DNA of 64,000 bases from Escherichia coli (GTDB lineage Bacteria; Pseudomonadota; Gammaproteobacteria; Enterobacterales; Enterobacteriaceae). The DNA is taken from the NCBI RefSeq assembly GCF_003334385.1, contig NZ_QOWN01000017.1; one strand, 5' to 3'. Of this stretch, positions 52,287-63,648 are shown piece by piece. The position numbers and the translations under genes are program-made. Below the pieces are notes generated by a model that saw nothing but the letters and a program-made list of their open reading frames with translations, did no database searches and was not told the DNA's origin. Every line of letters starts with the position of its first letter. Within the stretch, counting starts at the first letter, position 1.

Positions 52287-52979
52287 TTAAATGCCGAGTG
52301 GGAAAATATCATGGCCTTGTTCTTGCCAACTGGTGAGTTGCTGCTGTTGGGCGGAGGTTCGATTTTCACCGCACCACACCAGCAATGTACGGCCTTCGAA
52401 TAGTTCAGGGCGTAGTTGATTGAGCGAGTGGGCGAGGACATCAATGCGCCATCCTTGTTGACTGGCAATCCAGCCCTCCAGCCACAGACGGGTGGTATCC
52501 TGAATATTCCAGCCAACCACCAGCGCATCTTTACCCTGTTTTTTACGTGCCGAAGCCAGACAAATGGCGATGTAGTTGATCAGTACGCCGTCGAGGATCG
52601 CCAGCAGCGCCTGGAGAGTCGGTTGTTGGCACTGAAGCCGTCGGCGCAGAGGAATAAACAGATGTGTGGTGAGTGTCTGGGCGGGGTAATCCTGACCGCG
52701 CTCTTTGATCCACGTTCGCAGGCTATGTAGATTGCCGCTTTGCAGGTAAGTCAGTAATGTTTCTTGCTGATCGCGCCAGCCGTTCTGCACATCAACATTT
52801 TCATTACTGAGCAGCATTTTAACTTTGCTGACCTGCACGCCGTTGTCGATCCAGCGTTTGATCTCGCGGATCCGGTCAATATCGGCATCGTTGAACAGCC
52901 GATGACCGCCGTCTGTCCGTTGCGGTTTCAGCAATCCGTAACGCCTCTGCCACGCGCGTAACGTGACAGGGATTAAGGG
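52287..52979 (-). pseudogene. mlrA: mlrA (yehV) MerR-family curli regulator, 5'-truncated by prophage insertion
   Basis: Translation matches MlrA from ...PVTLRAWQRRYGLLKPQRTDGG to the C-terminus; the first ~17 codons are replaced by unrelated sequence with an in-frame stop at 53004..53006 and no start codon. Confidence 0.8.
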
Positions 52980-53008
52980 TAAACTAATTGATTTTGCAAG
53001 TTTTTATT

Positions 53009-54295
53009 TTACCCAGCTTTCTTATGGGGCATACATGGGACACTTTCAGATAGTCTTTTGTTAAGGAGTTCTATCTGTTCGTGATTGTTGTCTTTCATCC
53101 ATGCTCCGTAAACATTGAATACCATTTGTGCGTTTGTGTGGCCCATCTGGCTTGCGATAAAACTAGGATTAGCTCCAGCGGCAAGTGACCAGCATGCATA
53201 AGTATGCCTGGATTGGTACGATTTTCTGTGTCTCAGACCTGCGCGTTTTAAGATACTTGTCCATGACTCCCTGATGGAGTCAACCTTATAGTGCGGTCCG
53301 GAAAACTGCCGCTGTTTTATTACCTGAGGACTAAAAACAAAAGTGCATTTATGCACAGTACTTCTCCCATATTCCCTCTGCTTTACCTCTACAGAATGTT
53401 GCTTTCCAAGCATGGTCATTTCCGCCTGACTTTTAAGAGCATCAATAGCTGGTTGAACCAGATGAATTGTCCTTCCGGTGCCAGCATCGGTTTTTGGTGG
53501 AGTGAATTCGCCAAGTTTTGTATAATTCCTACGGATGGTTATAGTCCTTGCTTTAAGATCTATATCTTCCCATGCCAGCGATACCAGCTCCCCGTGACGA
53601 ATACCCGTGTATACAGCGAGAATCCACAGGTTTTTTGTTTGTTGATGACGGCAAGCCTCAATAAAACGAATAAATTCGTCACGGGTGAGAGGATCTGGTT
53701 TTACCTTGGACTTTTTTAAGGGGGCCAGACCGTTAAATGGGTTTCCTGAGGTATAACCATTATCTGTTGCAAATTGAAACATTCCAGCTATGGTTGTCAT
53801 ATAGTAGTTTACTGTGACCACTGAGCGCCCTTTTATGGAAGAAATCTTTCCATTAGAAAGCTTTTGGTAACCGGTCAACAAATCTCTCCTTGCGAAAAGT
53901 AAATCCTCTTTTGTTATGGATGAAACCAGTTTTTTCTCACCCAACATAGGCAACATGTTTTTAATTACTGACTGGTAACGATTAAGTGCATTCGCACAAA
54001 TCTCAATTTTCTTAAGGTCCAACCATTTTTCCGAAAGTGCCTTAACGGTTATCTCTCTTTTTCCCAGACCAAAGTGTTTCAGGTTAGGGGAATTAGGGAA
54101 CTGTGTAGCGTAGTCGAAACTCCCCATTCTGATTGCAAAACAAACGGAAGTGCGAAGTTCACCTGCGATCTTCCGGTTTTTGGCGGTGTCAGGAACACCG
54201 AGGTTTTCTCTGACACGTTTGCCATTATAGTGAAACCATATACGGAGTGATCCTCCATGGTTTTCAACGCCTGTCGGGTATGATACGTTACTCAT
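53009..54295 (-). CDS. int: Phage integrase (tyrosine recombinase)
   Basis: 428-aa ORF; GGGAGG SD; C-terminal catalytic region with conserved R...HxxR...Y pattern (RHTYACW, final Y in NVYGAWM). Confidence 0.85.
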   Translation of the reverse strand: MSNVSYPTGVENHGGSLRIWFHYNGKRVRENLGVPDTAKNRKIAGELRTSVCFAIRMGSFDYATQFPNSPNLKHFGLGKREITVKALSEKWLDLKKIEICANALNRYQSVIKNMLPMLGEKKLVSSITKEDLLFARRDLLTGYQKLSNGKISSIKGRSVVTVNYYMTTIAGMFQFATDNGYTSGNPFNGLAPLKKSKVKPDPLTRDEFIRFIEACRHQQTKNLWILAVYTGIRHGELVSLAWEDIDLKARTITIRRNYTKLGEFTPPKTDAGTGRTIHLVQPAIDALKSQAEMTMLGKQHSVEVKQREYGRSTVHKCTFVFSPQVIKQRQFSGPHYKVDSIRESWTSILKRAGLRHRKSYQSRHTYACWSLAAGANPSFIASQMGHTNAQMVFNVYGAWMKDNNHEQIELLNKRLSESVPCMPHKKAG

Positions 54296-54328
54296 TAAAC
54301 CTCCCAGACGTCCAGGAGCATTAACAGG

Positions 54329-54583
54329 TTAACCGGAACTTGCATTTTTGGCACCTGGTTGTTTCTGGTTTTCGATCCATCGCATAATTTCTTCGATGTT
54401 GTACAGGCATTCACTGTAATGCCCAGGATCACCTTCTACAGCGTAATGGCGGTATTCTTTTCCCTGCATCCATGACTTTCTTCTGGCCCGCTCGATGGTG
54501 CCGGGCTTTAGCCCTGTTGATGCAATAAGGACTCTCTCCGTACACCATTTGCTGGGGGTTATCTGATAGATGATTGTCTGCAT
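54329..54583 (-). CDS. Putative excisionase / small DNA-binding protein
   Basis: 84-aa basic ORF immediately upstream of int, same strand; resembles excisionase-like phage proteins (from memory). Confidence 0.5.
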   Translation of the reverse strand: MQTIIYQITPSKWCTERVLIASTGLKPGTIERARRKSWMQGKEYRHYAVEGDPGHYSECLYNIEEIMRWIENQKQPGAKNASSG

Positions 54584-55066: not shown

Positions 55067-56011
55067 TCATTGATTCACCTCCTGCCTGTCGTCCGGCATT
55101 CGCTCACTACAGCTTATCCAACCATCCGGAGTTACCGGAACTTGTGGAATGGCTGTCTGCTCTCGAACGTCATTAGGCGCTATAGGTTCTGCTGCCAACT
55201 GACTGGCATATTTGTTAATGGTAACGATAAGCTCTTGCTCAGCCTCATCCAGACAATCACCGATACCTCGCCTGTCACCGTCAAAATCATCGAAATCGGC
55301 ACGAATCCTGGCAACCTTCAGGATTGCGGACAACACCTCACTAGGAATTGCCGGATAGTTGGTTGACGTTTCCGCGATTTCCCGAAAATTATTGGTTGAC
55401 GAATTCTTGTTTTCCCGAAAGTTTCCGGACTGAAGCATGGCGGCGCGGCAGGCGTTCCATATTTCGGCAGCAATATCGCGCTCGCTATCGGTTAATTTGT
55501 ACGTTGAAACATAGCCAGAGAGCATTTCTACGTTTTCCGGAGTTGCTTCTTCAGGCACTACCGGTGCTGGCTCACGTATTACAGGCTCGCCCATGCGTGA
55601 TTCTCCCTGCGCCTCTTTCACCATGTGGTCATTGATTTGCTCCAGTCGCCGAACGTGCTCATCAGCTTCAAGCGCTCGCCGTTTCCAGATGGACAGGTCT
55701 TCACGAGCGCCCTGATATGCGTCACCGTATTCGCCGTTAAATACTGGCGCTGGCGGGGCGATGCGTCCAAGCAACTTATTTACCTCTTTCGCCATCGCGT
55801 CATATTTATCTAAATAGCGATTAGCTTCTAAGCAGACTCGGTGCATCTGATCTGAGTTAACTCGTTTAACTGGATCTGCTTCCAATGATGCCAGTGCAAT
55901 TCGTGCCAGTTCTTCCGCTTCTTCTGCTGGCAGTACAACGTTGCTACCCGGTCCGTATGTTTCGCGCCACTGCTTGATTGTCAGCAGTCGCCCTTTGGTA
56001 ATAGTGATCAT
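55067..56011 (-). CDS. Hypothetical phage protein (314 aa), shares RIALASLEA(D/E)PV motif with the 56428..56877 product
   Basis: Strong SD AAGAGGA; paralogous N-terminal motif; C-terminal GWISCSERMPDD resembles DUF551-type phage proteins (from memory). Confidence 0.6.
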   Translation of the reverse strand: MITITKGRLLTIKQWRETYGPGSNVVLPAEEAEELARIALASLEADPVKRVNSDQMHRVCLEANRYLDKYDAMAKEVNKLLGRIAPPAPVFNGEYGDAYQGAREDLSIWKRRALEADEHVRRLEQINDHMVKEAQGESRMGEPVIREPAPVVPEEATPENVEMLSGYVSTYKLTDSERDIAAEIWNACRAAMLQSGNFRENKNSSTNNFREIAETSTNYPAIPSEVLSAILKVARIRADFDDFDGDRRGIGDCLDEAEQELIVTINKYASQLAAEPIAPNDVREQTAIPQVPVTPDGWISCSERMPDDRQEVNQ

Positions 56012-56014
56012 GGG

Positions 56015-56203
56015 TTATCCTCTTAGCGCCACAACGCGCACTTCTGGGTCAAAGGATGATGAATTTTCATCTGTAATATCAGCAACATGACCTACAAAGT
56101 CGTTATACTCACACTCTGATTGTTCATAGCCCTGCCAGACCACGACAGCCTCAGGAGGCATTTTTCTGAGCTTGCTGATTAATTGCCTCACCGTCAGTGA
56201 CAT
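56015..56203 (-). CDS. Hypothetical small phage protein (62 aa)
   Basis: Perfect SD AAGGAG in an AAGGAGAGTGATATG junction; acidic C-terminus. Confidence 0.55.
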   Translation of the reverse strand: MSLTVRQLISKLRKMPPEAVVVWQGYEQSECEYNDFVGHVADITDENSSSFDPEVRVVALRG

Positions 56204-56204
56204 A

Positions 56205-56351
56205 TCACTCTCCTTTACCCGCTGCTTTCGCCTGCTCTTTAGCGAGTCGCTCCGCTTCTCTGAAATCCCAATCTACTCGATGTGCTATATCAATTGCAGA
56301 ACGCACGGTCCGTTCAATTAGCGTATCCAGGTTATCAATTGTCATTGCCAT
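56205..56351 (-). CDS. Possible small phage protein (48 aa)
   Basis: ORF below track threshold; helical charged sequence; stop TGA lies in the coupling junction to the next gene; no clear SD. Confidence 0.3.
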   Translation of the reverse strand: MAMTIDNLDTLIERTVRSAIDIAHRVDWDFREAERLAKEQAKAAGKGE

Positions 56352-56427
56352 ATCTGGATTGCGAGATAAAATCTCCGCCCTCTGAATCTGCTAGTTGTTG
56401 CAGGTTTCAAGTAATGAGTTAGCCATA

Positions 56428-56877
56428 TCACTCTCCTTTGATGCCAATGTTTACAGCCTGGCAAGCCTCTTTGAGTACCCAGTCAACAGCGTCTTTCCAT
56501 GCTCCGGTTTCGACTGGCGGATTTTCACGCTTAACCTGTTCATAGAAACGCACTGCTTTAATCAATCCTTCTGATGTCAGTGGCACAGGCGGGGCAGTGA
56601 ATAACGCCTGAATTTCATAGTTCGGTCTGTCGTTGCAATCCTCTTTTGTCGGTACATATTTCCAGTCACCAACCCACGAATCCCCCTGAGAGTCCGTAAC
56701 ACCTTTTTTCACGTAGCGATATCGCCACGCGACTGGCTCTGCTTCCAACGATGCCAGTGCGATACGAAACACATTGGCAAGCAGGCTGCTTGAAGATTGG
56801 TTATCGTGCGCCGGGTCGCTCAGGAAACCAGTGATGAATGATTTAATTTCCGCGTTTTCTCTGGTAATAGTGGTCAT
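56428..56877 (-). CDS. Hypothetical phage protein (149 aa), paralogous motif with 55067..56011
   Basis: SD GAGGA; start overlaps upstream stop (ATGA). Confidence 0.6.
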   Translation of the reverse strand: MTTITRENAEIKSFITGFLSDPAHDNQSSSSLLANVFRIALASLEAEPVAWRYRYVKKGVTDSQGDSWVGDWKYVPTKEDCNDRPNYEIQALFTAPPVPLTSEGLIKAVRFYEQVKRENPPVETGAWKDAVDWVLKEACQAVNIGIKGE

Positions 56878-57083
56878 TTATTAATCCTCAAAACTTTATG
56901 CCCGGGCGCAAAAGCACGTGTTTTGTCTTTGCTTATTCGCCAGCCATCCTTGCGCGCCTCTTTTGCACAGCCAGCCCATGACGTACCGATATACTCACCG
57001 AAGTCTGGCGTTTGATATTTACCATTTGTACACTGGCAACAATCACAGTAGAGATGCATGGTGTAACTTGCGGAAATAGCCAT
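56874..57083 (-). CDS. Small Cys-rich phage protein (69 aa; CDCCQC...C, possible zinc ribbon)
   Basis: Start at internal ATG of track ORF 56874..57191 with perfect SD (AAGGAGCCTGATATG); upstream gene stop sits in the SD spacer. Confidence 0.55.
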   Translation of the reverse strand: MAISASYTMHLYCDCCQCTNGKYQTPDFGEYIGTSWAGCAKEARKDGWRISKDKTRAFAPGHKVLRINK

Positions 57084-57084
57084 A

Positions 57085-57276
57085 TCAGGCTCCTTTAGTG
57101 CGTAAGTGGTTTTTCCAGCGGTTTTGCGCCGCGCTGCGCTTATCTTTGATTCCCTCTCTGGCAATTCCAGAATATAAGTACAACACCACACGGCGATTGC
57201 TAACTCTCAACCACTGGCTGGGATAGCAACGTCTGTATACACGGGAGATAAGCATCTTTGCTTTACGGTTTTTCAT
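57085..57276 (-). CDS. Small basic phage protein (63 aa), tandem paralogue A
   Basis: N-terminus MKNRKAKMLISR...WLRVSNRRV conserved with the adjacent upstream ORF at protein level; ATGA-coupled. Confidence 0.5.
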   Translation of the reverse strand: MKNRKAKMLISRVYRRCYPSQWLRVSNRRVVLYLYSGIAREGIKDKRSAAQNRWKNHLRTKGA

Positions 57277-57455
57277 CTTACTGCGTACCCTTTCTTCCGC
57301 CTGTTCTGTGACGCGCTAGGCTTTTTGCAACAACTGTGCCCCATCACCCCGCAACACCCCGTCAACCTCACTCGTCTGTTACTAATCCTCAACCATCGCC
57401 AGACCCCAACACCGTTTCTGCGAGCTAACAGAATTTTTGCCTTACGGTTTTTCAT
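57273..57455 (-). CDS. Small basic phage protein (60 aa), tandem paralogue B
   Basis: MKNRKAKILLAR...WLRISNRRV; SD AGGAGA; start overlaps upstream stop (ATGA). Confidence 0.5.
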   Translation of the reverse strand: MKNRKAKILLARRNGVGVWRWLRISNRRVRLTGCCGVMGHSCCKKPSASQNRRKKGYAVR

Positions 57456-57628
57456 CGTTTTGTTCTCCTGCGTTTCTTTGCTGCTCGTCGTGCCGCTGCA
57501 ATACCGGTATGGCGGCGCTTTGGTGCCGGGATGATGTTGTCAGCCATCAGGACATGTGGCTTTGCAATTAGCGCAGAAGCCCAAAAACGAGTCGGGTACG
57601 GTAACAAGCCGATACATGCCACACGCAT
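57452..57628 (-). CDS. Small basic phage protein (58 aa)
   Basis: Below track threshold; SD AGGAGG 6 nt before ATG; start overlaps the Ea22-like stop (TAATG) and stop overlaps next start (ATGA). Confidence 0.5.
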   Translation of the reverse strand: MRVACIGLLPYPTRFWASALIAKPHVLMADNIIPAPKRRHTGIAAARRAAKKRRRTKR

Positions 57629-58443
57629 TACTCACCTCCTTTGATGCGAATGCCTGCGGCGCGGATTGCAGCGATGACTTCAGAAACTTTGTATGCCATT
57701 ACCGTTTGGTAATCATCGTGAAAATCTGTTCGATGAAGCATGCTGCTACGTTCCGGGAGCGATATTTCCCGAGCATCCAGTTCCTTAACGCGTTCCTCCA
57801 GTTCGTAGACCCTGCATTGTTCTCTATCATCAATCAGATATAACCCAAGACATTCGCTTTCTACCCAACCGCCAAAATCATGATCGTAACGCTCACATGA
57901 AAACTCACCGTCACCGTCCTTTGTTGGAATGGTGTAACTATCTAATGTGCCACCATATGTCGGCACATTTCCCAATGTTGGATGCTCAATCCACATGAAA
58001 AATGCACGTCCGGTTATTGGGCAAATATCTGGCCGCCATTGGTTACGAACAGCCTTGGTTTCGGATAATTCTTCAGCGTGTTGTTTTACTTCCTCAAGCT
58101 CAACTCTCAGCTTCCCTACCGTTAGCGCAATATCCTCGTTCTCCTGATCGCGGCTTTTGATGTATTGCAGGTTTCTTTCCCGTTCATCCAGCAGTGCCAG
58201 CACGGTAGCCGGGTTAGCCTCTGCTATGAATTCAGCGTTTGCATAAGCCTGAGCATCTGTTTCAACCAGGCAGTTAACGTGACATTCTGCAATTACGCCA
58301 CCGGGTTCTCCTTTCCATTTTTGACAAACAAAAACTCCTGTTAAATTGCCGTGTTGGTTAACAGATGTATGCCCTACGATGTAGCTTCCTTTAGTTGCTT
58401 TCTCTGCCTTTTCACGCAGTGCCTGATAGTCAATCTTGCTCAC
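57628..58443 (-). CDS. Ea22-like phage protein (271 aa)
   Basis: GTG start with SD AAGGAGG; contains LLDERERNLQYIKSRDQENEDIALTVGKLRVELEE and C-terminal GIRIKGGE, which I recall as characteristic of lambda Ea22. Confidence 0.65.
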   Translation of the reverse strand: MSKIDYQALREKAEKATKGSYIVGHTSVNQHGNLTGVFVCQKWKGEPGGVIAECHVNCLVETDAQAYANAEFIAEANPATVLALLDERERNLQYIKSRDQENEDIALTVGKLRVELEEVKQHAEELSETKAVRNQWRPDICPITGRAFFMWIEHPTLGNVPTYGGTLDSYTIPTKDGDGEFSCERYDHDFGGWVESECLGLYLIDDREQCRVYELEERVKELDAREISLPERSSMLHRTDFHDDYQTVMAYKVSEVIAAIRAAGIRIKGGE

Positions 58444-58744
58444 TGGCAGCCTCCTTTGCCGGGATTTCTAACTTTTGAGTGGTTGTATCAAATTCAAACA
58501 ACTTAACCACGTCATCAAACAGGACATAATCACCATCAGGATTTTCAGTCATATCTGCGCCACAATCCTGACCGCACGAGTCGCAACCATCCATATCAAG
58601 CTCGTATCGCTTCAGGTTTGCGATATTTGATAAATTCAGCGCCAGTACAGCCAGGTCATAAACCTCTTCGGCAGTGACATCGCTGTTCAGTCCCATTTCA
58701 TGGCGATATATGATTTTTTCTACTCGTTGTTTTGTGATCGTCAT
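58430..58744 (-). CDS. Hypothetical phage protein (about 104 aa)
   Basis: Track ORF 58430..58768; ATG at 58744 (MTITKQR...); alternative start at 58696 possible; acidic, Cys-containing. Confidence 0.45.
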   Translation of the reverse strand: MTITKQRVEKIIYRHEMGLNSDVTAEEVYDLAVLALNLSNIANLKRYELDMDGCDSCGQDCGADMTENPDGDYVLFDDVVKLFEFDTTTQKLEIPAKEAASEQD

Positions 58745-59015
58745 TTTTCTCTTCACTCCGATATACAAGGATTACTACACCCCCTCTGCTGATTGCGCGA
58801 GCTGGATCCCCTGGTTCCATGCCGTCAATTCCGAAGGCTTCGGAAAACGCATTCATTGCCTTCTGGCGTTCATCCTGCTTACGGCGTTTATTCCATTTTT
58901 TCAGGAACAACAGCGACAGCCACCGTCCGCTGCAGAACACGATGTAAAAATAACCAAGGAGCGCCAGGCCGACATTCAGGGCCGTTTCTATGGTTAGTTG
59001 TGAGTCAGTTGCCAT
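58698..59015 (-). CDS. Small membrane protein (105 aa; one N-terminal TM helix, then basic stretch)
   Basis: Hydrophobic segment LNVGLALLGYFYIVFCSGRWLSLLFL followed by KKWNKRRKQDERQK; 3' end overlaps next gene so true stop/start uncertain. Confidence 0.4.
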   Translation of the reverse strand: MATDSQLTIETALNVGLALLGYFYIVFCSGRWLSLLFLKKWNKRRKQDERQKAMNAFSEAFGIDGMEPGDPARAISRGGVVILVYRSEEKNDDHKTTSRKNHISP

Positions 59016-59253
59016 TTCTTACCTGTTTAAGTAACTGGTTGAACATAACACTTAGGGGATTGCTGTATCCAAACGGCAGATTGTTTACGCAGTACAGAAT
59101 CATTTTGTTTTTTTCTCCAGTTCGTACTATTAACCCATTCCACAATAACCGTGATAATTCATTACTGATAGAAGTTGCGCTTCTTCCAAGTGCGAGGGAT
59201 ATATCTTCTCTACTGCAATCTGGATTTTCCTGGATATACTCGATAACGGTCAT
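59005..59253 (-). CDS. Putative winged-helix DNA-binding protein (82 aa)
   Basis: Track ORF 59005..59295; ATG at 59253 (MTVIEYIQENPDCSREDISLALGRSATSISNELSRLLWNGLIVRTG...) resembles a wHTH. Confidence 0.45.
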   Translation of the reverse strand: MTVIEYIQENPDCSREDISLALGRSATSISNELSRLLWNGLIVRTGEKNKMILYCVNNLPFGYSNPLSVMFNQLLKQVRNGN

Positions 59254-59263
59254 GTGGTCCCTT

Positions 59264-59845
59264 TTACTTAATATCTGTTTCGGATTGCATGCCATGAGTA
59301 TTCATTTCGTTAATAATTTCATCCAGAAGGATTTCAAGCCCTTCTCGACCCATATCTGAAAGAATGAAACCTTTATCAGGGGAAGTAGTGAGCATTTTCT
59401 GATAAAGAAACAGCGCTCTTCCCATTCCTTCAGTTTCGCCGTATTTTTGAATTAAATTCCATTCAATATACTGTTGTAAGGCAAATCGAATGGGGCCGGG
59501 ATATATCGTCATAAACCCATACATCCCGTTATATACCACGGCGTGTTCAGTTGTTCCGTGTTCATTCAGGATATCAATTGTGCCGTTCTTGTCTTCTTCT
59601 TCGTTGATGAATGTCGTCACATACAACCATCGCCACTGAGCAACCTTCATCTCAACCGGAAGTTTACCCAGTAATCCTGCTTCGTCGGCTTGCGCCAGAC
59701 ACTGAAGGATACGTAAACCTCGCACATTAGGAGTATCGAATTCTCCGGCATCCAGACGACGTATGGCGTCGTGATAATCAATCGTCATACTGCCAGTTCG
59801 TATACCATTGGCTGTTGCTTCAGCCTGGAATTCATCGTATTGCAT
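59264..59845 (-). CDS. Hypothetical phage protein (193 aa)
   Basis: SD GAGGA; no recognisable motifs. Confidence 0.55.
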   Translation of the reverse strand: MQYDEFQAEATANGIRTGSMTIDYHDAIRRLDAGEFDTPNVRGLRILQCLAQADEAGLLGKLPVEMKVAQWRWLYVTTFINEEEDKNGTIDILNEHGTTEHAVVYNGMYGFMTIYPGPIRFALQQYIEWNLIQKYGETEGMGRALFLYQKMLTTSPDKGFILSDMGREGLEILLDEIINEMNTHGMQSETDIK

Positions 59846-59850
59846 GATAT

Positions 59851-60039
59851 TTATTCCTCATCTTCATCTTCATCTGCTGGTGCAATAACGTCATATCCTG
59901 CCTTTTCTGCAATAAACAGGAATGTTGAAAGAGTTCCTACAAGTTCATCGTCATGAACATGGCGAATGAATATTACTTTCCCGTTTTTGATGGTCAGCAA
60001 TATTCTGGTTTGTTCGTGTTCTGCTGTTTTCTGATGCAT
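59851..60039 (-). CDS. Small phage protein with acidic tail (62 aa; ...APADEDEDEE)
   Basis: SD GGGAGA; stop 6 nt before next start. Confidence 0.5.
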   Translation of the reverse strand: MHQKTAEHEQTRILLTIKNGKVIFIRHVHDDELVGTLSTFLFIAEKAGYDVIAPADEDEDEE

Positions 60040-60233
60040 TATTATCTCCCGTATGCTTTACGCAGAAATAAGCAGGCAATATGCATGTAATTTTCACCGT
60101 ATTGTGCAATAAGGCAGGCGGTCTTGTGTGATGCCATATTCTTTATAAAAGTCACAATAAAGCCTCCTGTGGATTAAGGTTGTAACAATCCCCGGCGATA
60201 AAACCGCAATAAACGTTCAGGGCATATTTGTTG

Positions 60234-60599
60234 TTATTGCGCTAATTCTTTTTCGGCAGCAGCTTTTGTATACTCACATGCAAAACTCAGAATTTCGCTG
60301 CCGAGTGTTTTCGTTTCGTGATTACTGGACATATGTAATACCTGTGTTGCATGCAATAAATGATAAACATTTACCGCAAATGAATCAGGCTCCAGACAAA
60401 TGCCTTCGTAATTATCTTGCTGTGAGGTTGTTTCTGTCATTGCTCCTGAAGTGCATGCGAGCCTGTTTTTGACAATTCTCTTTTCTCTAATCACTATATC
60501 GGCAACATCTATTGCCTTTACAACCTCCGGGAGAAGTTCCGGGTTTGTATAATCAAAGTCATCAACATGGAGAACAGTTATGTTTTCGAACTTTTTCAT
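60234..60599 (-). CDS. Hypothetical phage protein (121 aa); C-terminal half paralogous to the N-terminal domain of the 60728..61276 product
   Basis: SD GAGGAAG; alignment LEPDSFAVNVYHLL...KTLGSEILSFACEYTKAAA versus LELDSFALNIANLL...KELGIEVMEFIHEYALSAA. Confidence 0.55.
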   Translation of the reverse strand: MKKFENITVLHVDDFDYTNPELLPEVVKAIDVADIVIREKRIVKNRLACTSGAMTETTSQQDNYEGICLEPDSFAVNVYHLLHATQVLHMSSNHETKTLGSEILSFACEYTKAAAEKELAQ

Positions 60600-60727
60600 G
60601 GCTTCCTCAGCTGACTTATATGTTCTGCTATATAGCGAGTCTCAGAAGTGTTTTCATATTGAGACTGTTTCCACAATGATTGATAAAAATGTTCGCATGT
60701 ACCTTGAAGGGCGAAGCGGCGATTATG

Positions 60728-61276
60728 TCACCATTGGTATTGGTTCTTCCGCAGAAGAGCTTCGCGAGATAAGGGGCAAACTTGTTGAGATGCGTCATGG
60801 TGTTGCTGCTCCTCACTTTTTGGTTGCTCCGGAGGAGTAACCTCACCAGTTAACAGGCACATCGGATCGCAGCCAAGAATATTTGCCAGTGGGATAAGCA
60901 TACTGATAGTTGGTTCATACTCTCCGCTCTCCCACTGGATGATAATTTCTTCATCGAGATCGAGCAGCCTGGCGAGTTCGGCGGTTGTTAAGCCGCAGGC
61001 TTCGCGTTGGGTGCGAAGGTTAACCAGCCAGCTTTCAGGGAAGGATTGTTTTTGCTGTGCAGGAGAAGCAGCAGATAGAGCATATTCATGGATAAATTCC
61101 ATTACCTCAATGCCCAGTTCCTTTGAGCGAGCACAATCCAGAAGATGGAATGTGCGTACAGCACTTAGCAAATTTGCAATATTTAATGCAAAGGAATCAA
61201 GTTCTAAGCCCTTAAGCGTAACACAGCCGCAGTTGATAAAATTAGTTGTTTCTGGAGTTGCTTTTAGTGTCTTCAT
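60728..61276 (-). CDS. Two-domain protein: N-terminal unknown domain plus C-terminal XRE-type HTH (182 aa)
   Basis: ATG at 61276 (track ORF extends to 61306); HTH segment GLTTAELARLLDLDEEIIIQWESGEYEPT; first gene downstream of a sigma70-like promoter next to cI. Confidence 0.55.
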   Translation of the reverse strand: MKTLKATPETTNFINCGCVTLKGLELDSFALNIANLLSAVRTFHLLDCARSKELGIEVMEFIHEYALSAASPAQQKQSFPESWLVNLRTQREACGLTTAELARLLDLDEEIIIQWESGEYEPTISMLIPLANILGCDPMCLLTGEVTPPEQPKSEEQQHHDASQQVCPLSREALLRKNQYQW

Positions 61277-61329
61277 ATATCCGCCAACAATTTTAAATTG
61301 AATCAAATCAAGTTATAATTGATGGTGCG

Positions 61330-61358
61330 ATATTATGTTTTGGGAAACAGGCTGTCAA
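61330..61358 (-). promoter_or_regulatory. Sigma70-type promoter (pL-like) reading leftward, away from cI
   Basis: On minus strand: TTGACA (61358..61353), 17-bp spacer, TAATAT (61335..61330); about 45 nt upstream of the 61276 start. Confidence 0.6.
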
Positions 61359-61388
61359 GAAAAAATTGATATCGTATATTTCAGGCAG

Positions 61389-61410
61389 AAAAAAAACGGG
61401 CAAAGCCCGT
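61389..61410 (-). terminator. Rho-independent terminator just downstream of cI
   Basis: Minus strand: ACGGGC-TTT-GCCCGT followed by T8 (plus-strand A8 at 61389..61396). Confidence 0.75.
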
Positions 61411-61422
61411 TAAAATCAAAGA

Positions 61423-62112
61423 CTAACCAAATCTGTTTATGTTGAATGGTACTGATGAGATCACTTTAGACTGGATATAAAGCAGAGCTAACCCCTCTTT
61501 TTCGATGCTCCATGGTTGATAATTGGGGTTATCAGATAACACCATGATTTTGCTTCCAATTTTTTGAAGCCTTTTCACGTAGCATTCTCCATCAAAACAA
61601 AATGCATAAATACCATCGCCATCAAAATAAGTTACTGTCTTATCAAGAAAAAGAAGGTCGCCAGGTGAGATTGTGGGAGCCATACTGTCTCCTCTGGCGT
61701 TACCTATTTCTATATTTTTGAATGCCCGATTTCCAACAAGACGTCGGGCATATTCAGGATCAAGTTCTATTGAGCGCACTACATCTATCAAGTCACCACG
61801 GACATGAGTTCCATCACCGCAACTAAACTCAACATCAAGGACATTAAATACGACGCTATCTGTTCTTGTCTGGTGTTTCTCTTGCGAGGAAAAGGTTGGT
61901 GAGGAGTCTTCACCTAAGAACCAGGATTGTGGATAACCGCTAATCTCTGATAAATGCGCGAGCTTATCACTCCGTGGAAATGTTTTTCCTGTTGTCCAGT
62001 ACTGCACTGATTGCGCACTCACACCTAACTTGCGGGCCAGTTGAGCCTGAGTCCATCCTTTTGCTTTCAGCATCGCGGCTATTCGATTTTCCGTGTTTTT
62101 GACGTTCTTCAT
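61423..62112 (-). CDS. cI: CI-type prophage repressor (N-terminal HTH plus C-terminal S24 LexA-like autopeptidase), 229 aa
   Basis: ATG at 62112 (MKNVKNTENRIAAMLKAKGWTQAQLARKLGVSAQSVQYW); S24 motifs GDSMAPT (Ser) and YVKRL (Lys); divergent from Cro-like gene. Confidence 0.85.
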   Translation of the reverse strand: MKNVKNTENRIAAMLKAKGWTQAQLARKLGVSAQSVQYWTTGKTFPRSDKLAHLSEISGYPQSWFLGEDSSPTFSSQEKHQTRTDSVVFNVLDVEFSCGDGTHVRGDLIDVVRSIELDPEYARRLVGNRAFKNIEIGNARGDSMAPTISPGDLLFLDKTVTYFDGDGIYAFCFDGECYVKRLQKIGSKIMVLSDNPNYQPWSIEKEGLALLYIQSKVISSVPFNINRFG

Positions 62113-62245
62113 GACCAAATCCTGTGGGTTTCTTTACAAGGATAAATCTTTACTTGATTTTAGTGTATTCGATCCTTTTGTAACTTGCATGTTAATTTAA
62201 ACTTGATGTATTCTTGATTTATAAAGTTAATATTGGTGTTTTGTT

Positions 62246-62536
62246 ATGGAAGGAAATGATTACGACAAACTTCGTGCATTAATTGCGCAAAATGCCATAG
62301 CGCGAAATCTTGGTGTGACGCCGCAAGCGGTGAATCAGTGGTTTTCAAAAAGCACAATTCCTGCTCGTTTCGTTTTACGAGTATGTGAAGTAGTTGCATG
62401 GAAGGTTACGCCTCATGGCTTAAGGCCAGATCTTTATCCTCACCCTGAAGATGGAATTCCTAACTTGTTACGCAAAAGCCTAAATCCAAGTTCACCACAC
62501 AGAGCGGATGGAATACACGCAGGAGATAAACAATGA
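62246..62536 (+). CDS. cro: Cro-like HTH regulator (YdaS/DUF1019-like), 96 aa
   Basis: HTH NLGVTPQAVNQW; HGLRPDLYP motif; divergent to cI across a 133-bp AT-rich intergenic region. Confidence 0.7.
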   Translation: MEGNDYDKLRALIAQNAIARNLGVTPQAVNQWFSKSTIPARFVLRVCEVVAWKVTPHGLRPDLYPHPEDGIPNLLRKSLNPSSPHRADGIHAGDKQ

Positions 62537-63240
62537 ACACCGCAATTTTTAACGGCAAAGCATCCATGACCAGCGTTGAGATCGCAGAGCTGGTGGGAAG
62601 CCGACCAGATAGTGTTAAGAGAACTATTGAAACACTGGCTAAAAAGGGAATCATCCAATTTCCACAGACTGTGGAAATTGAGAATAAACAATCACTTGGG
62701 CCTCGCCGATTTTCTAGCGCGTATGTATTCGAAGGTGAACGAGGTAAGCGCGACAGCATCATTGTCGTCGCACAGCTCTGTCCTGAATTCACAGCTCGCC
62801 TGGTAGATCGCTGGCGCGAACTGGAAGAACAGATCCGTAAGCCAATGAGCGAAATCGAAATGGTTGCCGCGATGGCTCTTGAAGCCGTTCGCCAACAGAA
62901 ACGGATCACTCAGGTGGAAGAAAAAGTCAGCCACGTTGCTGAAACAGTCGAGCAAATTAAAAAGGGCACTATTCGTGAGGGCTATGCCGGATATCGCCAA
63001 CTGAAAGCAAAAACCGGTTTGTCAGATGATAAATGCCGCAATCTGGTGAACGCCTATCAAATTCCTACAGACACACATGAGTTCATGACGCCGGACGGAT
63101 TGTTGTCACGTCGCGCAATTGTTGCTGTGGAACCGTTTATGGCTGCTTTTTATCGGGTTATGGAGGAAGCAGAACCGCGAGGGACTCGCTGGTATCACCC
63201 GAAAATGGGGTTATTTCAGGTTATTGGTTGGCAGCGATGA
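62533..63240 (+). CDS. Putative phage regulatory / antirepressor-like protein (235 aa)
   Basis: Start overlaps cro stop (ATGA); N-terminus MTSVEIAELVGSRPDSVKRTIETLAKKG resembles Rha/Bro-N-type DNA-binding N-domains. Confidence 0.5.
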   Translation: MNTAIFNGKASMTSVEIAELVGSRPDSVKRTIETLAKKGIIQFPQTVEIENKQSLGPRRFSSAYVFEGERGKRDSIIVVAQLCPEFTARLVDRWRELEEQIRKPMSEIEMVAAMALEAVRQQKRITQVEEKVSHVAETVEQIKKGTIREGYAGYRQLKAKTGLSDDKCRNLVNAYQIPTDTHEFMTPDGLLSRRAIVAVEPFMAAFYRVMEEAEPRGTRWYHPKMGLFQVIGWQR

Positions 63241-63648
63241 AAAAAAGCCGGGAGTAACCCGGCTCACTCAACATCAATAACGGGGAGCTGTTTCGCATAA
63301 AACGGCTCCGAAACATCCAAGAACAGTTCTAAAGATATCAGCAGCTATATGATCATTTCAAGACCAAATATTGATTCTGCAATTCCGGGACGTTACACTG
63401 CTCAGGCACCTTATAAAGCGGGTGCCGGGGGTCGCAGCCCGGAATTGTCAACGGCGATATATGACGCGCCAGCGTCTTTTTTATCGTCCGCGCTCACGCA
63501 CGCCAGAATTATGGTGGGCTGGGCAGGGGAGCCGAAAGGCTCGCCGGTCTCCGTTGACGCCGGTACTGCGAACCCTGTTCAGTCTGCCACCAGTGAGTTT
63601 CGCAGCTCCGGTGGTGGAAGTTTTCCACAGTCAACGGAGGCTGCCATC

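Follow-up and report, generated by a model that had tools for sequence, protein, structure and literature searches.

Which genes stand beside the repressor of a lambdoid prophage that has no N, and why do two of them share a domain? The question is raised by a 64-kb stretch of Escherichia coli DNA (the window), in which cI, the early-left genes, the terminator and the promoter discussed below all lie on the minus strand. The repressor gene cI (61423–62112; 229 aa from ATG) encodes an XRE-type helix-turn-helix (HTH) and a LexA-like S24 domain; it is annotated as cI or as an XRE family regulator, and it sets immunity type A. The host prophage is of the phiP27-like lambdoid type and adjoins mlrA, and the region is 99.5–99.8% identical to phage PhiR49_2 (99.5%) and to other mlrA-adjacent prophages. 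Early regions of this type occur in 372 of 5,426 complete E. coli genomes (about 7%) and also in many Stx1-, Stx2a-, Stx2d- and Stx2e-converting phages, while two IMG/VR scans matched close E. coli relatives only.

The prophage, phiP27-like and lambdoid, has neither N nor a Rec module, and the stretch in question marks the left edge of its immunity region. The sequence-only reading had placed uncharacterized genes in the N position and had recognized no N, CIII, Kil, Gam, Bet or Exo homologue; the placement was correct, and the absence extends to the profile level, with no match among the early-left ORFs (55067–61276). All of these ORFs except one of 37 aa match a PHROG family, and the families are of unknown function apart from two HTH proteins, which fall into a transcription-regulator family. 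No defense, toxin-antitoxin, N, CII or Rec homology was found for the region's proteins, and an Rfam search within the region of interest retrieved no RNA family. On the other side of cI, the early-right operon continues after cro with Roi/Rha-like genes, a C4/isrK RNA cassette, an Ant-like gene and then the replication genes; no cII-like gene is present 3′ of cro. Lambdoid phages without N and Rec functions are already known as a whole class (PMC12315714), and that paper describes LLS-type phages with a comparable early-left operon, devoid of exo, bet, gam and N and filled with genes of unknown function (Genome Res 2025).

Transcription of cI would stop at an intrinsic terminator, t_imm (61387–61411; terminator scan and sequence), which starts 11 nt 3′ of the cI stop codon. 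Its stem (61411–61395, AACGGGC-TTT-GCCCGTT) comprises seven pairs, five of them G-C, with a 3-nt loop and a following T8 run; one type-C phage carries an analogous hairpin and T-run in the equivalent position. Between t_imm and the first leftward gene lies the early-left promoter pL (61330–61358), with TTGACA at 61358–61353, a 17-nt spacer and TAATAT at 61335–61330, matching the consensus at 10 of 12 positions. A promoter scan of 3.7 kb returned 8 promoter-like sites against 9.1 expected from shuffles, so that the hexamer match alone is at chance level; pL is credible because of its position and the operators that flank it. One putative OL palindrome, TCAAGAAAAAATTGA (61355–61369), overlaps the −35 element, and another, TCAAGTTATAATTGA (61308–61322), covers about +2 to +16. 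Both are exact instances of TCAA-N7-TTGA, a motif with three exact matches in the whole window (TCAAGAAAAAATTGA among them), and at the second site the extended 17-mer ATCAAGTTATAATTGAT is an almost perfect palindrome. A third, weaker operator-like site, ACAATTTTAAATTGA (61287–61301), lies in the 5′ UTR with one mismatch, and the motif recurs between cI and cro (62143–62206) at 62143–62157 and 62192–62206; none of these sites is assigned to a strand. With up to one mismatch allowed, the window holds 36 occurrences. The two regulatory regions, 279 bp together, account for five of these, where 0.14 would be expected (P about 3e-7; 0 of 5,000 shuffles reach five); these regions also served to define the motif before the count.

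In immunity types B, C and D, the equivalent gap carries motifs common to the respective cI–cro region. Given the recurrence of the pL sites at cI–cro and the same pattern in four other immunity types, the downstream genes are probably CI-repressed early genes, and this is the most likely assignment, ahead of exclusion genes expressed in the lysogen. Since the putative CI operators overlap pL directly downstream of t_imm, the operon is predicted to be off in the lysogen; it would fire upon infection or after CI cleavage. The T8 terminator and the TTGACA-17-TAATAT promoter reported by the sequence-only reading are both present, but together they make up the junction of t_imm and pL/OL that is standard in lambdoid prophages, with nothing special about it.

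The likeness to the lambda junction extends to the order and orientation of the repressor gene, terminator, leftward promoter and operators recurring at cI–cro, and to a first gene whose N-terminal part travels with the immunity region. In contrast to lambda, the region has no rex genes and no Rec, kil or cIII genes downstream; no nut-like element was identified here, and the first gene encodes an XRE HTH protein, where that of lambda encodes the arginine-rich antiterminator N.

This first early-left gene (60728–61276) encodes a 182-aa regulator composed of an N-terminal domain termed X, an XRE HTH and a QYQW tail (PHROG 4836, 4739). The X domain, here of type A, spans residues 22–72 (61061–61213; translation and HMM match), and the HTH spans residues 87–138 (60863–61018; Pfam HTH_3, E 4.9e-10). 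Together with the following linker, the HTH resembles DicA (NCBIfam PRK09706, E 1.1e-8) and the N-domain of P22 C2 (PDB 1adr, E 1.4e-4). The regulator is nevertheless not a member of the DicA family, as its PRK09706 score of 34.9 bits falls far below the cutoff of 101, and it differs from DicA- and P22 C2-type repressors in that X precedes the HTH and a separate LexA-like cI gives immunity. Nor is it lambda N, being an HTH protein without an N family match in the profiles.

The second gene (60234–60599), preceded by a strong GAGGA ribosome-binding site before its ATG, encodes a 121-aa protein of the phiP27 L08 family (full-length match to PHROG 5451, E 1.7e-83). Its small beta-alpha N-domain is conserved and is joined by a linker to a C-terminal X domain (residues 62–121; 60237–60416), a helical hairpin whose helices occupy residues 71–89 and 94–120 in the AlphaFold 2 monomer model (block pLDDT 75–88). 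Homologues are conserved over the full length down to 44% identity. The C-terminal half had been proposed to be homologous to the regulator's N-domain, and BLASTP bears this out, aligning residues 69–115 with regulator residues 24–70 at 43% identity (E 1e-9). An HMM of the 121-aa protein's C-domain matches N-domain types A (1.6e-14), C (2e-14) and D (7.5e-11); types B and E have no detectable match to the X profile, and type D also matches the type-B family profile. Judged from these sequence comparisons, the paralogy between the two genes is a real, family-wide property.

X is a helical hairpin of roughly 50 aa, found at the N-terminus of the XRE regulator and at the C-terminus of the protein encoded next to it. 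This two-helix domain has not been described before. It is rare: a set of 1.84 billion proteins contains 53 clusters that carry it, either on its own, after a small beta domain or preceding one to three HTHs. HTH_3 is present in 16 of 17 long members, and beyond the standalone and beta-plus-X forms the domain is essentially confined to this regulator family. In Stx phages and in L166, a distant relative, genes for X-only proteins (60–71 aa) directly follow or overlap that of the regulator; the 71-aa X-only gene of L166 begins 3 nt past the end of the regulator gene. In Stx2_112808, the regulator and X-protein genes overlap by ATGA, and in some phages the second gene is translationally coupled to the first. 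An X protein after the regulator was undetected in two of three distant relatives, and neither the window nor the 41-kb phage contains a third X-bearing ORF.

Comparison of about 160 related loci reveals the regulator to be a mosaic of three parts. The type of its N-domain pairs one-to-one with the cI allele (A, 23 loci; B, about 45; C, 6; D, 6; E, 1), and cI is 100% identical across all loci with a type-A N-domain. The HTH is conserved (86–100% identity across types A–E and 77% to phiP27 L10), and the C-tail assorts freely; the mosaic breakpoint falls exactly at the junction of N-domain and HTH. Purifying selection acts on every segment (dN far lower than dS, which is saturated). The N-domain is the least constrained segment (dN 0.39 versus 0.036 for cI), and its dN/dS, well below 1 with dS saturated, gives no sign of positive selection. 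X types are unmatched between the two genes: one small protein (94–100% identical) accompanies N-domains of all five types, A to E, and a B-type regulator is found next to a small protein whose X domain is D-like.

This arrangement recalls the SinR/SinI pair, in which a shared two-helix surface forms an inactivating heterodimer of four helices that prevents DNA binding (PMC3163267). In both cases an XRE-type HTH regulator stands beside a small protein homologous to its two-helix domain, with an oligomerization role of X presumed here. SinR carries its hairpin at the C-terminus, the present regulator at the N-terminus, and the Pfam SinI dimerization domain gave no match with the E threshold raised to 10. 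The small gene here lies downstream in the same operon, unlike sinI, which has separate regulation; the X types are unmatched between the partners, and the setting is a Gram-negative prophage. A second related system is that of TF-smORF modules (Silpe et al., Nature 2023; PMC10432266), whose transcription factor activates an adjacent small gene and whose small product inactivates cI by an SOS-independent pathway. There too, a phage transcription factor gene adjoins a small-protein gene near the master repressor, with little sequence conservation in the family, but the small protein here is a paralogue of the transcription factor's own domain. Both genes here follow a promoter putatively repressed by CI and so could not initiate induction, unlike TF-smORF modules.

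On the reading that we favor, with a probability of roughly 45%, the locus is an N-less phiP27-like junction whose early regulator is modulated by a domain-only paralogue. The first early-left product would be an XRE-type DNA-binding regulator taking the place of lambda N, and its X hairpin would serve in oligomerization or partner binding and so enable the HTH to bind repeated sites. The X-protein may act on the regulator through the same hairpin, with mixed oligomers limiting or timing regulator activity. By analogy, such SinR/SinI-like modulation appears the likeliest mechanism, although the unmatched X types weaken it, types B and E without an X match and the two distant relatives without an X protein also speak against it, and an antagonist co-transcribed with its target needs added assumptions on stability or translation rate. 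N, CII, CIII and Rec functions are all missing from phiP27-like phages, and a conserved regulator with an immunity-linked N-domain and an adjacent paralogue is the obvious candidate for control of early transcription and of the lysis-lysogeny decision, and therefore a candidate for control of toxin-phage induction.

In a possible but less probable alternative, X would be a generic, interchangeable module for self-association. Each of the two proteins would then homodimerize without ever touching the other, and their paralogy would reflect domain shuffling. The independent assortment of X types between the two genes argues for this explanation, as does the small protein's N-half, which is better kept than its X domain (in P0062, about 80% identity for the N-half versus about 27% for X). 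A diverse N-domain ahead of a conserved HTH is also the outcome expected of an interchangeable dimerizer, and the two distant relatives without an X partner are consistent with it. Against it, the X-only proteins offer nothing besides X through which they could act, and their genes adjoin or overlap the regulator gene; X is also very rare and, beyond the standalone and beta-plus-X forms, essentially limited to this one regulator family.

We consider it doubtful that the regulator and its paralogue form an undescribed decision module replacing N, CII and CIII, in which X would be immunity-specific through engaging the cognate immunity machinery, free X would set the timing and the proteins of 37, 62 and 193 aa (p37, p62, p193) would serve as effectors. 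The N-less lambdoid phages to which such a module would apply include many Stx1- and Stx2-converting phages. It is improbable that the regulator's N-domain contacts cognate CI, Cro, or RNA or DNA near OL, as an immunity-matched anti-repressor, co-repressor or N-like factor with which free X competes. The strict one-to-one pairing of N-domain and cI, with an HTH and C-tail that recombine freely, the mosaic boundary exactly at the N-domain/HTH junction and the low constraint on the N-domain would all fit such a contact. However, a mere 150 bp or so lies between the cI stop codon and the N-domain coding sequence, and this DNA must itself match cI; physical linkage is thus enough to account for the pairing. 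The dN/dS values without positive selection, the lack of sequence similarity between the N-domain and CI or Cro, and the lack of any further X-bearing ORF in the window or the phage likewise count against it.

Even less probable is a regulator that substitutes for CII as an early activator of the repressor and integrase genes, with the small proteins tuning its stability in a CIII-like manner. The missing cII-like gene and an HTH kept across immunity types, as expected for a target in conserved flanking DNA, are compatible with this role, and PHROG 4836 is labeled "CII-like regulator". That label is the depositor's name only, though; the regulator was rejected as a CII homologue, with no CII model of Pfam or NCBIfam matching it, no candidate target site of pRE or pI type was identified, and the gene lies in the left rather than the right operon.

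Very unlikely, finally, is a lysogen-expressed exclusion, abortive-infection or toxin-antitoxin module with the XRE protein as its regulator or antitoxin, as suggested by the cI-adjacent position (occupied by rexAB and sieB in other phages), an XRE gene followed by small translationally coupled genes, and weak HTH-only matches to antitoxin and defense-regulator models, because a terminator separates the block from cI, the block has its own promoter with operator-like sites common to cI–cro and runs unbroken into the ea-type early-left genes as far as xis and int, no PADLOC model matches any non-HTH protein (0 families for those of 121, 62 and 193 aa), no toxin family matches, and the antitoxin models match through the HTH only, below their cutoffs. 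The sequence-only reading had considered rexAB/sieB-type conversion or exclusion genes, which the operator-like sites over −35 and +2 to +16 make unlikely, and a regulatory or anti-host-defense role: the gene pair may indeed be regulatory, whereas for defense the PADLOC matches were generic HTH only.

The regulator, X-protein, p37, p62 and p193 occur together in 78 of 78 loci that were recovered through the 193-aa gene and whose flanks span the block; in the distant relative L169, synteny is partial. On the favored reading, p37, p62 and p193 would be further promoter-proximal early proteins traveling with the regulator. Pfam, PADLOC and NCBIfam searches of the block proteins, and PDB sequence searches of the 182-, 121-, 62- and 193-aa proteins, gave generic HTH matches only, and an AFDB50 search retrieved uncharacterized relatives only. 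A literature search by protein accession and for phiP27 L08 and L10, with the phiP27 genome paper outside its coverage, returned nothing, including expression or binding data, and the regulator, the X domain and the 37/62/193-aa block are not described in the passages of PMC12315714 that were covered.

The 37-aa ORF (60042–60155) has a GTG start and an AGGAGG ribosome-binding site, and its stop overlaps the start of the 62-aa gene. The sequence-only reading had missed it. It is kept as a coding sequence in diverged loci, with 59–62% identity in L166 and L169; it is annotated in PhiR49_2 and not by PGAP, has no PHROG match and has not been described before. The 62-aa protein (59851–60039; PHROG 340) does end in the acidic tail attributed to it (ADEDEDEE). 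Its homologues measure 60–68 aa, with a D/E tail whose length varies by 6-nt steps, and L169 encodes a syntenic homologue of 43% identity. On testing, it proved to be a paralogue of neither the phage's own Roi/Rha protein nor the N-domain of the 121-aa protein; its weak PHROG matches to anti-repressor C-termini gained no confirmation from Pfam.

The 193-aa protein (59264–59845) lacks recognizable motifs, as originally noted, with no match in Pfam, NCBIfam, PADLOC or PDB-sequence searches. Its family, not described before, is kept widely in Enterobacterales prophages; the predicted structure is confident yet without a PDB match. The end of its gene is overlapped by that for a 96-aa winged-helix (MarR-like) protein (59005–59295; PHROG 1687), whose NCBIfam and PADLOC matches are generic winged-helix only. 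Found in part of the related loci, this protein is a variable neighbor outside the conserved block.

The genes that follow cI form a real, conserved, uncharacterized early module. The prophage that carries them begins at int (53009–54295) and xis (54329–54583) and continues, after some 7 kb of leftward early genes, with cI (61423–62112), cro (62246–62536), and Roi/Rha-like genes. Every feature listed in the sequence-only reading is present: the T8 terminator, the promoter, and ORFs for proteins of 182, 121, 62, and 193 amino acids. That list of four genes overlooked a 37-aa ORF (60042–60155). The reading had also found no recognizable N, CIII, Kil, Gam, Bet, or Exo homolog, and indeed none of the early-left ORFs of the prophage matches any of these families; absence of N and a Rec module is a recognized trait of a class of lambdoid phages (PMC12315714). 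Positions 59000–62600 are 99.5% identical to Escherichia phage PhiR49_2 and 99.8% identical to mlrA-adjoining prophages of E. coli O111:H8 8E and O55:H7 RM12579, while phiP27 and Stx1a-, Stx2a-, and Stx2d-converting phages share parts of this region, which is matched in 372 of 5,426 complete E. coli genomes. In the window, the prophage lies integrated beside mlrA (yehV) (region 52287–54583), and the first ~52 kb are host chromosome (yehW/yehX side) with naRNA4 and Peptidase-S11 RNA matches.

The first early-left gene encodes a 182-aa regulator (60728–61276) in which Pfam HTH_3 covers residues 87–138, in agreement with the XRE helix-turn-helix (HTH) assigned earlier. The paralogy reported between this protein and the 121-aa small protein was also borne out, with residues 24–70 of the former and 69–115 of the latter sharing 43% identity (E = 1e-9). 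This shared domain, here called X, is modeled by AlphaFold 2 in the small protein as a helical hairpin (helices 71–89 and 94–120, block pLDDT 75–88) that follows a small beta-alpha domain and a disordered linker. Among 1.84 billion representative proteins, a profile search recovered X in only 53 clusters, and no Pfam family covers it. Three architectures were found: X alone (60–70 aa), a beta domain followed by X (120–121 aa), and an N-terminal X ahead of one to three XRE HTH domains, with HTH_3 matched in 16 of 17 long X-bearing members. The paralogous domain is a family-wide feature. In P0129, a regulator with X and three HTH domains from the distant related locus L166 (3501–4502), VVIVDGKVVKNR lies between HTH domains and resembles ADIVIREKRIVKNR of the N-terminal domain of the 121-aa protein; the match is short and may hint at a fusion linking the regulator and small-protein genes.

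Related loci were collected from IMG/VR, 80 via the small-protein gene and 78 via the 193-aa gene, and across them the regulator is a three-part mosaic. Its N-terminal 70–90 residues fall into at least five types, each accompanying a single cI type (A, the type in the window, 23 loci; B, about 45; C, 6; D, 6; E, 1). An HMM of the small-protein C-terminal domain matches type A (E = 1.6e-14) and types C and D (2e-14 to 7.5e-11), with no match to types B or E; because type D also matches the N-terminal region of the type-B family profile, type B is probably a remote member. The HTH is 86–100% identical across the collected loci, and the C-terminal tail takes at least three forms (a QYQW tail, as in the window, a short tail, or a second HTH) that pair freely with the N-terminal types. 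Relative to phage Stx2_112808, with dS saturated, dN rose from 0.036 in cI to 0.11 in the HTH and 0.39 in the N-domain (0.19 in its core). All segments are thus constrained, the N-domain least, and the comparison gave no sign of positive selection. Proximity alone can explain the one-to-one link between N-terminal and cI types: roughly 150 bp lie between the cI stop and the beginning of the N-domain coding sequence, and the closest homologous stretch where recombination could occur is the conserved HTH sequence.

The intervening gap contains an ordinary t_imm and pL/OL. A 7-bp G+C-rich hairpin with T8 starts 11 nt past the cI stop, and TTGACA-17-TAATAT follows at 61358–61330 on the minus strand. 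The hexamer match by itself does not exceed chance (8 sites in the scan versus 9.1 in shuffles). Exact TCAA-N7-TTGA palindromes, putative operators, lie over the -35 (61355–61369) and at about +2 to +16 (61308–61322), with a weaker third site at 61287–61301; the same motif occurs between cI and cro (62143–62157 and 62192–62206). Allowing one mismatch, 5 of the 36 matches in the window fall inside the 279 bp of both regulatory regions, against 0.14 expected (P about 3e-7; 0 of 5,000 composition-matched shuffles reach 5), a count that is partly circular in that the motif was taken from the regions in which matches were counted. For the full 41-kb phage, the two regions hold 5 of 13 matches. Comparison across immunity types is the stronger argument for OL. 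In phages with different cI alleles, this gap holds other motifs, each recurring in that phage's own cI–cro region: CCAAAGTATCAA and CTTGATAC for type B, CGATAAAC and TAAACCTA for type C, and TTGCTATT/AATAGCAA for type D. Because the flanking operators change with the repressor, as OL does, we infer that this promoter is pL and is shut in the lysogen. Such predicted repression in the lysogen speaks against a lysogen-expressed module of the rexAB/sieB type, the kind of function that the map position had suggested.

The account best supported by these data has four steps. CI would keep pL shut; upon infection or induction, the XRE regulator would be made first, oligomerizing via X and binding DNA; the small protein, encoded on the same transcript and carrying X, would associate with the regulator and modulate it; and the 37-, 62-, and 193-aa proteins would supply further early functions. 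The nearest working analogy is SinR/SinI, in which SinI, homologous to the two-helix oligomerization domain of SinR, pairs with it in a heterodimer and thereby abolishes DNA binding (PMC3163267). The prophage pair does not belong to that family, as Pfam SinI gives no match; the domain order of the regulator is reversed relative to SinR, and the small gene is cotranscribed with the regulator. The pair is likewise distinct from the TF-smORF induction modules that Silpe et al. described, which act upstream of cI and independently of SOS (PMC10432266). The regulator and its paralog would represent a novel version of a known regulatory design.

In favor of a functional pair, the two genes neighbor each other in all E. 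coli loci examined; in Stx2_112808 a 66-aa X-only gene overlaps the regulator gene by ATGA, and in L166, with its three-HTH regulator, a 71-aa X-only gene begins 3 nt past the regulator gene end. A hairpin-only protein has little besides the hairpin to act with. Against pairing, X types are unmatched: the same small protein accompanies all five N-terminal types, a D-like X small protein occurs next to a B-type regulator, and no X protein was detectable after the regulator in two of three distant relatives. At 60234–60599 (minus strand), PGAP calls only a 68-aa product from M54, whereas phage records give the 121-aa ORF. A good ribosome-binding site (GAGGA or AGGAG) precedes each start, and M54, which is not kept in all long forms, aligns with the start of 66–68-aa X-only proteins of other phages; two products are possible.

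Farther left, p37 (the 37-aa ORF, minus strand) has a GTG start with an AGGAGG ribosome-binding site, and its stop and the start of the 62-aa gene overlap. It is missing from the RefSeq/PGAP annotation and has no PHROG match; its conservation among diverged phages is that of a coding sequence (59–62% identity in distant relatives). Upstream of it, TTATTGCGGTTTTATCGCCGGGGATTGTTACAACC (60160–60215, minus strand) hardly varies among phages in which the genes on either side share only about 50% identity, and may represent a conserved regulatory element or an RNA structure. The 62-aa protein, p62 (59851–60039, minus strand), falls in a narrow family (PHROG 340; homologs 60–68 aa) and ends in ADEDEDEE; the length of this acidic tail (59851–59875, minus strand) differs between phages in 6-nt steps, behaving like a D/E-repeat length polymorphism. 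Searches of PADLOC, NCBIfam, Pfam, and PDB returned no match for p62 or for the 193-aa p193 (59264–59845, minus strand). All 78 loci found via the 193-aa gene, where the flank reaches, carry the regulator, X protein, p37, p62, and p193 together, and the distant locus L169 keeps the order regulator, p37, p62 (43%), and p193 (42%) despite insertions. MarR-like and membrane proteins further left vary between loci. Tandem paralogous genes for 63- and 60-aa proteins, both starting MKNRKAK and both PHROG 1380, lie at 57085–57455 (minus strand).

In the distantly related L166 (2462–3343, minus strand) and in L167, an opposite-strand 293-aa gene is inserted between cI and the regulator; it has a weak BRCT match and may be a moron occupying the place of rex. 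In the early-right operon of the window, an isrK Hfq-binding RNA (63406–63482, plus strand; Rfam, 58.7 bits) is followed by a C4 antisense RNA (63507–63594, plus strand; 78.8 bits), both directly upstream of an Ant/Rha-like ORF, a region that looks like a P1/P7 immI-type C4 RNA/anti-repressor cassette in a lambdoid prophage with a LexA-like cI.
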